Shown: piece by piece, positions 10,517 through 48,136 of the stretch
Numbering within the stretch: position 1 is the stretch's first letter
Layout: every line of letters starts with the position of its first letter
Assembly: GCA_037443035.1 (NCBI GenBank)
Contig: JBBIPC010000003.1
Span: 161,383 to 225,382 of the forward strand
DNA: 64,000 nucleotides
Source: Chthonomonadales bacterium
GTDB taxonomy: Bacteria > Armatimonadota > Chthonomonadetes > Chthonomonadales > CAJBBX01
Direction of reading: 5' to 3'
Position numbers and translations under genes: made by a program
Notes under the pieces: model-generated
Database searches by the model: none
Told to the model about the DNA's origin: nothing
Seen by the model: the letters and a program-made list of their open reading frames with translations, nothing else

Positions 10517-10891
10517 GTGCTACCCCGGGAGAATCGTCTACGACAGCGAAGAGACTTCAGCGCGACGTACTCCCGTGGACGCCGGTTCGATCTGCCTTGT
10601 CTCGCGCTTTACGTGAGGCGAACGGACGCGGAGCGAGTTCGACTGGGCTTCACCGTCGGCCGTAAGGTGGGTTCCGCCGTCGTACGGAATCGGGTGAAAC
10701 GTCTCTTGCGCGAGTCCTGTAGACTCATGCTGGATGCACTACGCCCGGGCTTCGATGGAGTGTTTGTGGCCCGGGCATGTCTGCGTGGCAAGTCCTACAA
10801 CGAAGTACGAGCAATGGTGGCGGAGCTAGTCCAGCGTGCGGGTCTGATTGGCGGCAACAAGCGTAACGATGGCATGGAGCACGAGAGGTGA
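10517..10891 (+). CDS. rnpA: Ribonuclease P protein component
   Basis: RLRQRRDF, RLGFTVGRKVGSAVVRNRVKRLLRE (RNR motif); canonical position after rpmH. Confidence 0.95.
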   Translation: MLPRENRLRQRRDFSATYSRGRRFDLPCLALYVRRTDAERVRLGFTVGRKVGSAVVRNRVKRLLRESCRLMLDALRPGFDGVFVARACLRGKSYNEVRAMVAELVQRAGLIGGNKRNDGMEHER

Positions 10892-11161: not shown

Positions 11162-12514
11162 TTGACGGAGAACAAGCACTGGCTGCAGGTGGCCCTGCGG
11201 CTATTCGCGCTGCTGGCGCTGCTGATCATGGGCGGCTTCGCGGTGACGCAGACGCCTGGACGAGACGACGGCGGCCCGTTCGCCAAAGCTGCAGCACTGG
11301 AGAAAGCCGGTAAGCTGGACGACGCCGTCGTAGAGTATGACCGCGTCATCAAGGAGCTAGGCAGCAGTAATCTGCGGGTCACGACCGAAGCGCGATTCCG
11401 CAAGGCGGCGGTCCTTGCCAAGCTCAAGAGCCCCGATGACGTCCTCAACGAGTACGCGCAGATCGTCAAGGAGAACCGGGGTCGCGATGCCGAGCGAGCG
11501 GCAGAGGCACTCTATCTGGCCGGCAAGTATGCCTCGGACCCGGACTATCCGGGCACGGAGACCAAGCGGTCGCATGCGTTGGACCAGGCCTATCAGCTGT
11601 GGCGGCAGTTACGCGACGATTTCCCTGACACGGATGCTGCGCACCGCATAGTTGGCGAGAACGGTCCCATGGCACGGCTCATGGACCGCATTGACAAACG
11701 CAACTCTGCCGACTGGAAGTACCAGGTCATTGACGCTCTCGTTCGCCTCAGCGGCAGGAATCCGTCCTACAGCTACGCGTTGGCTCTCATCCTCTTGGCG
11801 GTAGCGGTGAAAGTGATTCTCCTACCGTTGACTCGGAAGCAATACGCTTCCATGCGCGAGATGCAACGCATGCAACCGCTGGTGAAGGAGCTTCAGAAGA
11901 AGTACAAGGGTGCTGAGCTGAACCAAAAGACCATGGAGCTCTACAAGGAGCACAAGGTCAACCCGTTCGCAGGGTGCTTCACAGGCCTGCTCCAGATTCC
12001 CTTCCTCATCCTGATCTTCAACGCCATCCGCGAGTACGAGATTGCGTTCGCCAGAGGCAAGTTCCTCTGGATCGGGAGTCCGCTGGCGGGTCATGGCCCG
12101 CAAATCATGGGTCAGCCTATCATCGGAGCGAATCTCGCCTCGCCCGACATCCTCTTGCTGGCCATCTACGTCATCACGAACTATGTGACCATGCGCATGA
12201 CGCCAGCCACGGATCCCCAGCAACAACAGCAACAGAATACGATGGCGCTCATGACGTCGGTCCTCTTCTTCTGGATGTTCCTGAGCTATAAGTGGTCATC
12301 GGCATTCGTGCTGTACTGGCTCGCTCTGAACCTGTTGTCTATCTGGCAGCAGTACGAGATGATCTACAAGCCCCATAGAGAGGCCGCGGCAGCAGCGGCT
12401 GCGAATGGAGCGGCGCCAGGGCTGCCGGCCAGCGCTCAGCCAGCTCCTGCTCCAGTGGATGCCACACCCAGTTCACCCCCTCAGCGGGTGCGCCCGCGCC
12501 GTAAGAAGAGGTAG
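11162..12514 (+). CDS. yidC: Membrane protein insertase YidC with a TPR-like extracytoplasmic domain
   Basis: KVILLPLT...SMREMQRMQPLVKELQKKY...MELYKEHKVNPFAGC...LLQIP, FLWI, LYWLALN...WQQ. TTG start after AAGGAG; helical repeats between TM1 and the core. Confidence 0.92.
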   Translation: MTENKHWLQVALRLFALLALLIMGGFAVTQTPGRDDGGPFAKAAALEKAGKLDDAVVEYDRVIKELGSSNLRVTTEARFRKAAVLAKLKSPDDVLNEYAQIVKENRGRDAERAAEALYLAGKYASDPDYPGTETKRSHALDQAYQLWRQLRDDFPDTDAAHRIVGENGPMARLMDRIDKRNSADWKYQVIDALVRLSGRNPSYSYALALILLAVAVKVILLPLTRKQYASMREMQRMQPLVKELQKKYKGAELNQKTMELYKEHKVNPFAGCFTGLLQIPFLILIFNAIREYEIAFARGKFLWIGSPLAGHGPQIMGQPIIGANLASPDILLLAIYVITNYVTMRMTPATDPQQQQQQNTMALMTSVLFFWMFLSYKWSSAFVLYWLALNLLSIWQQYEMIYKPHREAAAAAAANGAAPGLPASAQPAPAPVDATPSSPPQRVRPRRKKR

Positions 12515-12517
12515 GTC

Positions 12518-13057
12518 ATGTCCGAAGAGGAAAGCCGGACTGATTCGTCCGCAGACATTGACACCGACACCGTCGGTGTACATGCCCAGCCCAATCAGCG
12601 GGACCTCCAAGCGGTCGAGATCGTTCGATCCGTCTGCAAGGCCGGCGACTTCGAGGTGGTGCCGGAGATTCGGTCCATCGAGGGAAGCTACCTTCAGGTG
12701 GAGCTTGTTGGGCCTGATGCCGAGAGGATTTTCAGCCGCAACGGCAAGATGCTGGATGCCCTGCAGTACGTGATCAACCTCATGGTTGCGCGTCAACTCG
12801 GACCGGGGGTGCGCCTCCTTCTCGACGCCGGTGGGTATCGAGAGCGCCGCCGGGAGCTGTTGGAGAGCCTTGCGAGGAAGTATGCAGCGCTAGTGAAGGA
12901 GAAGCAACAGGAGTGCGAGTTCGATCCCTTGCCTCCCCACGAACGGCGGATCATTCACCAGCTCTTCATAGATGACCCAGACGTCACGTCCTACAGCGAA
13001 GGCGAAGAGCCCGAGAGGAAGGTCATCCTCTCGCCACGTACAGCACCCGACGCATAG
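12518..13057 (+). CDS. jag: Jag/EloR/KhpB-type RNA-binding protein (KH + R3H)
   Basis: NGKMLDALQY KH-like segment, LDAGGYRERR, LPPHERRIIH (R3H), SYSEGEEPERKV; located after yidC. Confidence 0.88.
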   Translation: MSEEESRTDSSADIDTDTVGVHAQPNQRDLQAVEIVRSVCKAGDFEVVPEIRSIEGSYLQVELVGPDAERIFSRNGKMLDALQYVINLMVARQLGPGVRLLLDAGGYRERRRELLESLARKYAALVKEKQQECEFDPLPPHERRIIHQLFIDDPDVTSYSEGEEPERKVILSPRTAPDA

Positions 13058-13061
13058 CCCC

Positions 13062-13100
13062 AGAAAACAAAGCGCCCGCACCGTACTCTCGATGCGGGCG
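13062..13100 (-). terminator. Rho-independent terminator (minus-strand polarity; may also stop jag read-through)
   Basis: CGCCCGCAtCG-agagta-CGgTGCGGGCG is fully paired (via G-U) only on the minus strand, and the U-tract is on the minus strand. Confidence 0.7.
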
Positions 13101-13143
13101 TCCATCTATGGAGATGGGAGTCCTTGAAAAGGAGGACATGCGC
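13062..13143 (-). ncRNA. Candidate small regulatory RNA with two C/U-rich hairpin loops and an intrinsic terminator
   Basis: Minus-strand promoter-like motif at 13153-13179; hairpins GUCCU-CCUUUUCA-AGGAC and CCAUCU-CCAU-AGAUGG; then an 11-bp stem followed by CUUUGUUUUCU. Ends are approximate. Confidence 0.55.
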
Positions 13144-13152
13144 ACCAGGTTA

Positions 13153-13179
13153 TACGGCTCCCGACGCAGCCCCGTTCCC
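13153..13179 (-). promoter_or_regulatory. Putative ECF-sigma promoter (GGGAAC-N17-CGTA)
   Basis: Preceded by an A/T tract; points into the candidate sRNA. Confidence 0.5.
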
Positions 13180-13306
13180 GTTTTTGTAGTGAATCAAAAT
13201 AATCTTTCGCTAGCGTGCTTTCTCTCCAGCCGCGCAGCTCCGCCGACGTCTCGGTCCGTGCGGTACAATAGCTGCGGAGCAGGAAGTGTGAAGGGGACGG
13301 TGCTGA

Positions 13307-14257
13307 GTGGGGCATGACCACCACGATGTGGACCTGACGGACCGGCGCATGAAGCTGGCCATTGTCCTCACCGTGGGATTTGTGGCAGCAGAAGCATTGG
13401 CGGGATGGAAAGCCGGTAGTCTGGCTCTCCTCTCGGATGCCGGACACAACCTTACCGATGCCATGGCGCTAGGTCTGTCGGCTTTCGCCGTCTGGATCGC
13501 CCACCGTCCAGCGACAGAGCGTCGCACGTTCGGCTATCATCGAGTCGGCATTCTTACCGCACTGGTCAATGCGGTGACGCTCGTGCTCATGTGCGGCCTT
13601 ATCGTCGTGGAAGCCGTCCATCGCCTCCGGCAGCCTGAGCCCGTGGCGAGCGCATGGATGATCGGTGTGGCGCTGATAGCTCTCGTCCTGAATGGGACGA
13701 TCACACTGATGTTCAGGAAGGCTGCTCACGGCGACATCAACGTGCGCAGTGCGTATCTCCATATGCTATGGGATGCCGTTGCCTCGCTAGGCGTCATCCT
13801 CGCAGGCGTCATTGTTTCTCTGACAGGCAACGTCATCGCCGACCCCCTCGTCTCCCTGCTCATCGCCGCTCTCATCCTCTGGAGCACTTGGGGCATTCTC
13901 AGGGAATCGCTGGACATTCTCTTGGAAGCGACCCCTACGGGCGTGGAGTTGGCTACTCTGGAGAGCACAATCCGAGGCGTTGCCGGCGTGTGCGATGTGC
14001 ACGACCTACACGTGTGGACCATTTCCTCCGGAATACTGGCTGCGAGTTGCCATGTAACGGTGGCCGAAGGCACATCGGCCCGCACGGGACAGGCGCTGGC
14101 CGAGGAGGTCGGCCGGTCTCTGGAGACGCGATTCGGCATCACGCACACCACTGTGCAGGTGGAAGTGGACGGCTGCGAGAGGTCCGATCGCCTCTGTACG
14201 CTGCGAAGAAACGGAGTCCAGCCGAATGGTGAGCAGGTGGCGCCAACGAAGCCATGA
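13307..14257 (+). CDS. Cation diffusion facilitator (CzcD/ZitB-like Zn/Co/Cd exporter)
   Basis: His-rich N-terminus; SLALLSDAGHNLTD (HxxxD in TM2), TFGYHR, NVRSAYLHMLWD (HxxxD in TM5), VHDLHVW, HTTVQVE. Confidence 0.92.
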   Translation: MGHDHHDVDLTDRRMKLAIVLTVGFVAAEALAGWKAGSLALLSDAGHNLTDAMALGLSAFAVWIAHRPATERRTFGYHRVGILTALVNAVTLVLMCGLIVVEAVHRLRQPEPVASAWMIGVALIALVLNGTITLMFRKAAHGDINVRSAYLHMLWDAVASLGVILAGVIVSLTGNVIADPLVSLLIAALILWSTWGILRESLDILLEATPTGVELATLESTIRGVAGVCDVHDLHVWTISSGILAASCHVTVAEGTSARTGQALAEEVGRSLETRFGITHTTVQVEVDGCERSDRLCTLRRNGVQPNGEQVAPTKP

Positions 14258-14858
14258 GGGAGACGCGCGTAGCACTCTCTGGCGTGGAGACGGCCGCCGT
14301 GGCAACGGATGCGCCGAGGGTCGGTCTAGCGGAGCTGGCGTGGACATTCTTCATTATTGGTATCACAGGCTTCGGAGGCGGCATGGCCATCGTCGCACTC
14401 ATCCAGCAGATCTGTGTTGAAAAGAAGCGCTGGCTGACGTCCGATGAGTTCGCCCATGGTGTCGCGCTGAGCCAGTTCCTCGGGGCCTTCACGGTCAACA
14501 CGACAACGTTTGTCGGCTATCGCCTTCGCGGCCTGGCCGGAGCCATTGTGGCCGTGTCGGCGTTCTTGCTCCCGGGAGTCGCAGCCATCACCGTGCTGGC
14601 TGCGCTCTATTTCCGCTATCAACAGCTGCCGGCACTCCAGAGCATGCTGCACGGCATCGGTCCTGTTGTTGTGGCCGTGATACTCGCTGCCGCCTTCCGC
14701 ATGGGGAAAGGGCGCATGGGCGATATCGAGTCCATACTCCTTGCCGCGATGGCGTTTGTCGCGCTGTATGTGCTGTCGGTACCCGTGCTGGCTATCGTGC
14801 TGGGGCTTGTGGTCTACGGGTTCGGACGGAACGCCCTTGTTGGAGGCAGGGAGCCATC

Positions 14859-14862
<4 letters not shown>
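14254..14862 (+). CDS. Short-chain chromate ion transporter (CHR family), first subunit
   Basis: FFIIGITGFGGG, KKRWLTSDEF..GVALSQ, GYRLRGLAGA; ATGA overlaps on both sides. Confidence 0.85.
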
Positions 14863-16821
<1,959 letters not shown>

Positions 16822-42693: not shown

Positions 42694-43329
42694 ATGCACG
42701 CAAGCGACAAGGTCCTATATCCGACGCCGTGGAGCGGAAACGTGACCGGCGAGAAGACGGCGCCTCCTCTCGATCCAGACGAGGCCGCGATCGCACGCTT
42801 TCTTGCCGGTGACCGGAGCGGCTTCGACGAGCTTTTCGATCGGTACGCCGGATATGTGCACAGTATCGTCTATGGTGTGCTCGGCGACGAAGAGGCGGCC
42901 GCCGACGTCACGCAGGAGGTCTTTCTGCAGGTCTATCGTTCGCTCCATGTCTTCAGAAGGGGCGCCCGCTTTCCGACATGGCTCTACCGTGTGGCGCTGA
43001 ACAAGGCCCTGGATGCTGCGCGGAGTGCCAGGCGACGAAAGTTGGTTCCGCTCTCACCTTCGCTGGAGCAGACACGAGATACGGAAGGGGACCCTGCCGA
43101 GCATGACGAAGCGCGGGATCTGCGCCGGAGGGTCGAGAGCGTGCTTCAGAGCCTGCCGGTACACGATCGAGAGATCCTTGCCCTCCGGTATTTCCGCGAG
43201 CTATCCGTTAGCGAGATAGCGGAGGTCCTGCGATGCTCTCCCACGGCAGCGAAGGTCCGTCTCTTTCGTGCGCGCACCAGATTCAAGGAGGCGTACCACA
43301 AGATGTACCCGGAGGAGCGCGATGACTGA
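42694..43329 (+). CDS. ECF RNA polymerase sigma factor
   Basis: Region 2 AADVTQEVFLQVY...FPTWLYRVALNKALD; region 4 LPVHDREILALRY...SVSEIAEVL...AKVRLFRAR. GTG 42742 is an alternative start. Confidence 0.95.
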   Translation: MHASDKVLYPTPWSGNVTGEKTAPPLDPDEAAIARFLAGDRSGFDELFDRYAGYVHSIVYGVLGDEEAAADVTQEVFLQVYRSLHVFRRGARFPTWLYRVALNKALDAARSARRRKLVPLSPSLEQTRDTEGDPAEHDEARDLRRRVESVLQSLPVHDREILALRYFRELSVSEIAEVLRCSPTAAKVRLFRARTRFKEAYHKMYPEERDD

Positions 43330-48109: not shown

Positions 48110-48136
48110 CGGAACTCCCGAGCCTATTGTTACGTA
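48110..48136 (+). promoter_or_regulatory. Putative ECF-sigma promoter (CGGAAC-N17-CGTA)
   Basis: Intergenic, preceded by an AT-rich palindrome, about 90 nt upstream of the prepilin-like gene. Confidence 0.55.

Follow-up and report, generated by a model that had tools for sequence, protein, structure and literature searches.

Does the 249-nt gap that separates jag from a cation-efflux gene in a Chthonomonadales bacterium (assembly GCA_037443035.1, phylum Armatimonadota) hold a gene of its own? The gap lies in a stretch of 64,000 nt (contig JBBIPC010000003.1, positions 161,383 to 225,382 of the forward strand), which is called the window below. An earlier note, made from the letters of this window, had proposed that the minus strand encodes an unannotated small RNA (sRNA) of about 80 nt, with a promoter of the extracytoplasmic function (ECF) type and a terminator of its own. 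Comparison with related genomes indicates that this sRNA is a real gene, conserved over several Armatimonadota orders: the unit recurs in 81 loci and both of its helices covary. We read it as an independent gene for a trans-acting regulator of about 80 nt, putatively driven by an RpoE-like sigma factor, of the Hfq type and acting by blocking ribosome-binding sites. On balance we hold this explanation to be probable, with real reservations that are set out below.

The elements previously described on the minus strand, namely an A/T tract, the motif GGGAAC-N17-CGTATAA, the hairpins, an 11-bp stem and a U-tract, are all present when the sequence is read. Their positions, with the evidence on which each rests, are as follows.

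13063-13145, minus strand: the whole sRNA, about 80 nt (covariance model; sole conserved part of the intergenic region; single copy in the genome)
about 13180-13203, minus strand: A/T-rich tract, a possible UP-like element upstream of the -35 element (sequence and promoter alignment)
13174-13178, minus strand: -35 element GGAAC of the ECF-type promoter, read as GGGAAC at 13179-13174 (sequence and 78 promoters)
13153-13156, minus strand: -10 element CGTA, read as CGTATAA from 13156, after a 17-nt spacer from the -35 element (sequence and 78 promoters)
13125-13143, minus strand: 5' seed GCGCAUGUCCUCCUUUUCA, invariant and mostly unpaired (alignment of 38 members and consensus fold)
13120-13137, minus strand: hairpin 1, GUCCU/AGGAC, with CCUUUUCA in its loop (genus level only; formed in the source genome and its closest relatives)
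13102-13117, minus strand: hairpin 2, CCAUCU/AGAUGG, stem conserved and loop sequence variable (helix 1 of the model)
13073-13100, minus strand: terminator stem-loop of 11 bp including one U-G pair (terminator scan and helix 2 of the model)
13062-13072, minus strand: U-tract CUUUGUUUUCU (sequence and terminator scan)

The 5' end of the RNA carries GCGCAUG, which starts at 13143 on the minus strand. The transcript would begin within about 2 nt of 13145-13143 and end inside the U-tract. The predicted fold of the 93-nt RNA has an energy of -41.1 kcal/mol, whereas shuffled sequences average -28.2 kcal/mol (sd 2.9); this corresponds to a z-score of -4.4, and none of 200 shuffles was as low. The terminator scan detected the terminator on the minus strand only, in agreement with the earlier note, and the terminator helix covaries. 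Within a 1.6-kb region the scan returned two sites resembling terminators, where shuffled sequence would give 0.9. Every sRNA member that was displayed has a T-rich tail after the stem.

Conservation was assayed by several searches. When the whole gap was compared as a 281-nt query with 40 relatives in a DNA search, the aligned part consisted only of query positions 176-258, that is, window positions 13145-13063. The exact 18-mer GCGCATGTCCTCCTTTTC was present in 107 loci of a collection of species-representative genomes. Record titles were listed for 80 of these loci, which comprise 63 sRNA members and 17 scattered coding-sequence matches in other phyla; in 596 Gb, an 18-mer should match about 17 times by chance. 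The titles of the 63 members read Chthonomonadales, Chthonomonadaceae, Chthonomonas, Armatimonadales, Armatimonadaceae, Capsulimonadaceae, Armatimonadota or simply "bacterium". The assignment of related loci to taxa rests on these record titles, and one of the 63 members is a contig titled as a metagenome-assembled genome (MAG) of Janthinobacterium. By title, a copy with the same architecture is found in Chthonomonas calidirosea (L004/L039), a species whose type strain is in culture. Pooling the 18-mer loci with those from the search of the 40 relatives gave 125 occurrences; an ECF-type promoter together with a T-tract was present in 94 of them, and 79 sequences were distinct.

A covariance model, R1, was built from an alignment of 38 members. 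With this model, 81 loci scored between 47 and 86 bits and 19 other sources scored at most 32 bits. Eighteen of the low-scoring sources are chance occurrences of the 18-mer; the remaining one, L123, scores 31.7 bits, has a promoter and a terminator and seems to be a divergent member. In the source genome, R1 matched window positions 13066-13145 (G000:C3:174448-174527) with 70.7 bits and an E-value of 2.2e-17. Of the order's 40 genomes, 34 had a full-length match with E <= 6.7e-7. The six without one are G004 (78% complete, with a partial weak match only), G006 (76%), G026 (64%), G017 (99%), G018 (94%) and G039 (95%). In an evenly sampled set of 151 genomes of the phylum, R1 matched 40 at E <= 1e-3, and 36 of these matches were full-length at E <= 1e-5. 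They concentrate in families f1-f3, f14 (6/6), f16 (9/13) and f29 (7/7). Three of the four weak matches (G068, G083 and G170, all but G121) and a second match in G031 lack the seed and were rejected as false positives. Nearly all positive genomes contain one strong copy of the sRNA.

Some observations on the occurrence of these sequences stand apart. One Chthonomonadales MAG (contigs L029 and L071) holds two different sRNA copies, each with a promoter and a terminator. In one clade of ten loci (L028, L033, L048, L052, L056, L060, L089, L103, L116 and L126) the terminator hairpin is about 20 nt longer, and the next gene on the same strand appears by eye, from its translated open reading frame (ORF), to be MgtC-like. 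Finally, on Rhodobacteraceae MAG contigs (L067:399-475, plus strand, and L131) the 18-mer opens an unrelated sRNA-like element with a second CCUCCC motif and a terminator. This element scores weakly against SorX (26.9 bits vs 46.6) and mmgR/suhB (24.7 bits vs 41).

The structure is conserved together with the sequence. In the consensus fold of the 38 members, the first 28 nt are unpaired and are followed by a short hairpin and then by the 11-bp terminator; compensatory changes occur in 11 of the 15 pairs. When the alignment was extended to 81 sequences, 96.2% of the cells paired, compared with 75.0% after shuffling and 30-41% with the partners slid, although this alignment was fitted to R1 and structure is thus somewhat favored. 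Both sides change in 13 of the 15 pairs. For helix 1, the conserved hairpin, such changes affect all four pairs and 99.4% of the cells pair; for helix 2, the terminator, they affect 9 of 11 pairs and 95% of the cells pair. Structural conservation among relatives was one of the points by which the earlier note had proposed to judge its sRNA, and the covariation described here speaks for it.

The most constant part of the molecule is its 5' end. Nineteen consecutive positions, GCGCAUGUCCUCCUUUUCA, are invariant in all 38 aligned members, and their complement, UGAAAAGGAGGACAUGCGC, consists of a Shine-Dalgarno sequence plus AUG. Eight of the weakest-scoring members were inspected, and the core CAUGUCCUCCU is kept in all of them; the seed has diverged in seven (G025, G032, G124, G112, G135, G051 and G034) and is of the standard form in G089. 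GGAAC-N17/18-CGT(A/T) is found in seven of these eight. Anti-Shine-Dalgarno sequences had originally been assigned to loops. The element itself is indeed present, as an invariant seed, but in most members it forms the unpaired 5' end and not a loop: hairpin 1 is absent from the consensus structure and forms only in the source genus and its nearest relatives. The second motif that had been put forward, CUCCAU as the complement of AUGGAG, does not hold up, as the loop of hairpin 2 that includes it is shared by the closest genera only.

The genomic surroundings are much less constant. The plus-strand genes of the window include rnpA (10517-10891), yidD, yidC (11162-12514), jag (12518-13057), whose product has R3H and KH domains, and the cation-efflux gene (13307-14257). 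In 7 of the 17 family loci, the jag-yidC pair lies downstream of the sRNA and is convergent to it; the cation-efflux gene adjoins the sRNA in the source genome only, and no neighboring gene is universal. As the neighbors vary among lineages, the sRNA is best described as a free-standing gene, neither a leader nor a 3' untranslated region. The idea that the sRNA is linked to the RNA-binding protein Jag/KhpB, encoded next door, is not supported, since jag holds that place in 7 of 17 loci only. Beyond the cation-efflux gene, two adjoining and overlapping ORFs (14254-15407, plus strand; about 200 and 180 amino acids) look by eye like a split small membrane-transporter pair.

Which sigma factor might read the promoter? 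The promoter has a fixed geometry, in keeping with the ECF type first suggested for it. Among 78 distinct matched promoters, GGAAC and CGT are separated by 17 nt in 73 and by 18 nt in three. The distance from CGTA to the invariant GCGC is 9 nt in 47 and 10 nt in 27 (74 of 78 together), which would place the 5' end of the RNA within 1-2 nt of the seed. The consensus of 73 aligned promoters consists of an A/T-rich upstream part, GGAAC-w-t-t, CGTA and then an A/T-rich stretch; the 28 nt upstream of GGAAC average 56% A+T in these promoters, against 41% over the whole loci.

The source genome encodes 24 sigma-70-family genes and contains 79 sites of the form GGAAC-N16-18-CGTA in 3.76 Mb, both strands counted. 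One of these sites is located directly upstream of an ECF sigma gene (G000:C12:57643-58266), referred to here as the C12 sigma, and this is the only one of the 24 genes with GGAAC...CGTA upstream. Its operon encodes the ECF sigma factor (Sigma70_r2 and r4_2 domains), an anti-sigma factor of the zf-HC2 type and a protein whose N-terminal domain is MucB/RseB. This is an rpoE-rseA-rseB-like arrangement. Orthologues of the C12 sigma are clearly separable from paralogues, and GGAAC-N17/18-CGTA stands about 50-200 nt upstream of all of them that were considered, 30/30 in the order and 24/24 in other families (54/54). In the phylum sample, a C12-type sigma was found in 36 of the 36 sRNA-positive genomes at E <= 1e-40, and in 34 at E <= 1e-64. 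The gene for the RNA chaperone Hfq is also present in the source genome (96 bits) and in all 36 sRNA-positive genomes of that sample; a search of the source genome for ProQ did not find it. The co-occurrence of sRNA, sigma factor and Hfq was cross-tabulated by hand.

The window itself contains two further features of this kind. A second GGAAC-N17-CGTA lies at about 48111-48136 on the plus strand (G000:C3:209493-209518), and the gene that starts some 90 nt downstream of it, at about 48228 (plus strand), encodes a protein with a prepilin-type N-terminus (FTLIELLVV), which may belong to the same ECF regulon. Another ECF sigma gene is located in the window, with its Sigma70_r2 match at 42832-43038 on the plus strand (G000:C3:204214-204420) and GTAAC-N-CGTC about 200 nt upstream of this match.

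In the explanation that we favor, an ECF sigma factor would transcribe the sRNA from GGAAC-N17-CGTA, and the intrinsic terminator would end the transcript. The sigma factor concerned would most likely be the conserved RpoE-like C12 sigma. Because the C12 operon is of the envelope-stress type and carries the same motif, the sRNA would be made when that pathway switches on. Its unpaired 5' end, with the core CAUGUCCUCCU inside the longer invariant stretch, would then pair in trans with target mRNAs at their Shine-Dalgarno sequence and start codon, and this pairing would block ribosome binding and lower the synthesis of the target proteins. Hfq would probably be bound at the terminator and the U-tail. 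We infer that occlusion of ribosome-binding sites while an RpoE-like pathway is active is the most economical mechanism.

Targets were searched for on this basis. Exact 11-mers of the seed complement occur at 22 sites in the source genome, and none of the eight sites inspected was at a convincing gene start; the best of them, C14:68037, falls within an open frame. Duplex energies were then ranked for 2337 candidate starts of 1703 ORFs in the source genome, with a crude ORF filter as gene caller. They average -14.9 kcal/mol (sd 3.5), and the top two candidates, at -30.7 and -29.6 kcal/mol, are by eye secreted glycoside-hydrolase-like proteins. The 5' region of the C12-type ECF sigma gene itself is at background level, with a mean of -15.6 kcal/mol (sd 3.6) in the 50 of 54 loci that were parsed.

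Several findings weigh against the favored explanation, some of them on targets and distribution and others, taken up further on, on the sigma factor. Over 41 genomes, the 19-mer complement with up to three mismatches was found at about 52 sites outside sRNA genes, compared with 42 for a reversed control, and none of these sites recurred across genera. A degenerate 19-mer that tolerates G-U pairs gave, with at most one mismatch, 57 sites against 49 for the control. The best predicted target is an accessory gene, present in 6 of 41 relatives. Proteins with signal-peptide-like sequences are more frequent among the top 100 candidates (38/100 vs 358/1603), and 23 prepilin-like genes are shifted to stronger energies. 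However, shuffled, mutated and 16S-like control seeds give both effects, so neither the enrichment in exported proteins nor the shift of the prepilin-like ones is specific to the sRNA seed. In addition, the exact seed complement would put GGAGG 2 nt from AUG, which is too close for a normal start site; real targets would therefore need a bulge or partial use of the seed. As for distribution, R1 gave no match in G017, G018 and G039, which are genomes of the order at least 94% complete. Sister genomes in their genera (g17 and g5) carry the sRNA, and loss or an assembly gap may explain the missing match. Of the 151 genomes, 81 have the C12-type sigma and 95 have Hfq, which makes both commoner than the sRNA. 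Given this wider spread, and since the genomes are not independent, their co-occurrence with the sRNA is weak evidence and the counts overstate the support.

The same sRNA gene could also be read by a different ECF sigma paralogue, in which case the inducing signal would not be an RpoE/RseA/RseB-like pathway. Six of the other ECF genes among the 24 sigma-70-family genes carry related upstream motifs (such as GGAAC-N-CGTC, GAAAC-N-CGTA or GTAAC-N-CGTC), so that a paralogous sigma factor could be the true regulator. Moreover, the spacer preference differs, the sRNA promoter having mostly 17 nt (73/78) and the promoter of the C12 operon 18 nt in 46 of 54 cases. Nevertheless, both spacings occur in both sets, as 18-nt spacers are found in sRNA promoters, including those of G032 and G124, and 17-nt spacers in 4 of 24 operon promoters from other families. 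The exact GGAAC...CGTA is confined to the C12 operon, where all 54 orthologues have it, and no sRNA-positive genome of the phylum sample lacks a C12-type sigma. We therefore regard regulation by a paralogue as unlikely, while giving it some weight. A more radical view concerns the function of the 5' end, which could be a mimic of the 3' tail of 16S rRNA, acting either as a general competitor for Shine-Dalgarno sequences or as a decoy for a protein or nuclease that binds the anti-Shine-Dalgarno. The 16S rRNA of the source genome ends in GGAUCACCUCCUUUCUA, and by eye 12 of 17 positions are the same as in GCAUGUCCUCCUUUUCA, including the entire CCUCCUUU and the shared pattern AU-NN-CCUCCUUU. A seed that only a few mRNAs had shaped would not usually stay invariant over 19 nt across orders, and the target searches gave no specific conserved target; a mimic would explain the two together. 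If this were true, a free "16S tail" released under envelope stress would be a global throttle on translation initiation and not a regulator of few targets. However, a gene present in a single copy would hardly suffice to titrate all the Shine-Dalgarno sequences in the transcriptome. Furthermore, the positions flanking CCUCCUUU differ from 16S rRNA and yet are invariant (CAUG), which suggests that the partner is not simply any Shine-Dalgarno sequence. We give the mimic little credence.

Two other readings deny that the product is a regulatory RNA of the minus strand. The transcript might be a short-leader mRNA from whose conserved AUG a small peptide is made (AUG UCC UCC UUU UCA, or MSSFS...). 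Every member has such an AUG 4-6 nt from the predicted 5' end, and most share the four codons that come after it. Against this, the invariant stretch has zero synonymous variation, the downstream indels are not multiples of three, and what is conserved downstream is base pairs, not codons. The length of the frame by eye also varies widely, with 3 codons in G124 (AUG UCC UCC UAA), 5 in G025, about 10 in L030 and more than 25 in G112. A coding function is thus very improbable. Alternatively, the signals could belong to the plus strand, as a bidirectional jag terminator, a ribosome-binding site with an ORF from 13138, or a leader of the efflux gene, those on the minus strand arising by chance. 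The plus strand does contain GAAAAGGAGGACAUG and an open frame (13108/13138-13317), the stem lies 5 nt from the end of jag (13057, stop included), and the cation-efflux gene follows at 13307. However, GGAGG is only 2 nt from the AUG at 13138, the ORF would cross the promoter region, which is not conserved, and Rfam gave no match to a riboswitch or leader family. The efflux gene is a neighbor in the source genome alone and jag in 7 of 17 family loci, whereas in 81 loci with differing neighbors the minus strand is the one to which T-tract, promoter geometry and covariation point. A plus-strand origin is consequently hardly credible. We thus retain the reading of an independent sRNA gene, with a seed that would occlude ribosome-binding sites and with the C12 sigma as its candidate regulator.

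This sRNA was also compared with known RNAs. All 4227 models of Rfam 15 were searched against window positions 12000-14500 on both strands and against eight other sRNA members. No family reached its gathering threshold on the sRNA of the window or on the eight others, which fits the new sRNA that had been proposed. The best match over the sRNA was to RF02278, a Betaproteobacteria toxic small RNA, with 15.5 bits against a gathering threshold of 50 and an E-value of 8.5; over the sRNA of the eight other members, the only match was RF02837 on L097 (19.8 bits vs 49.5, E 0.44). RF02278 resembles the Armatimonadota sRNA in its architecture of hairpin plus terminator and in motifs of the CCUCC type, but the match spans only hairpin 2 and the terminator. 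Membership was rejected, the score being far below gathering and the seed outside the match.

The closest analogies are in the proposed regulation and mode of action. RybB, MicA and MicL are sigma-E-dependent, Hfq-binding sRNAs of Enterobacteria. The Armatimonadota sRNA is like them in its length of about 80 nt, its own ECF promoter (RpoE-type in their case), its Rho-independent terminator, and its genome, which encodes Hfq and an rpoE-rseA-rseB-like operon sharing the promoter motif of the sRNA; as in RybB, its conserved seed is single-stranded and begins the RNA at the 5' end. It differs from them in belonging to a distant phylum, with no similarity of sequence or model, and in its seed, which is anti-Shine-Dalgarno plus anti-AUG while theirs are specific for outer membrane protein mRNAs; the anti-sigma factor of the C12 operon is a zf-HC2 protein. 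With its seed, a conserved unpaired pyrimidine-rich motif, the sRNA recalls the NfeR1/alpha-r14 family and MmgR of alpha-proteobacteria and the C-rich RsaE/RoxS of Firmicutes, which are trans-acting RNAs whose unpaired pyrimidine-rich motif pairs with several ribosome-binding sites. Those RNAs have two or three loop motifs (CCUCCUCCC or CCCC), whereas the Armatimonadota sRNA has a single 5'-terminal motif plus CAUG. Promoters, regulators and phyla differ as well, and the Rfam models of these families have no match on the Armatimonadota RNAs. In the titles and opening lines of abstracts searched, no description of an sRNA from Armatimonadota or Chthonomonas was found. Thus, with no Rfam family, no such description and an architecture of a known type, this is a new sRNA family.

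The Armatimonadota hereby gain a well-defined and widely conserved sRNA family that is described by a covariance model and comes with a promoter motif and a candidate sigma factor, in a phylum for which the literature, as far as the titles and abstract openings searched go, describes no regulatory RNA and Rfam holds no model of this sRNA. The findings suggest that the joining of a small-RNA repressor arm to an envelope-stress pathway of the RpoE/RseA/RseB type arose outside the Proteobacteria too, as a case of convergent regulatory design. Moreover, the unusually long invariant seed directed against ribosome-binding sites offers a handle on the regulated genes in a group with almost no genetics.

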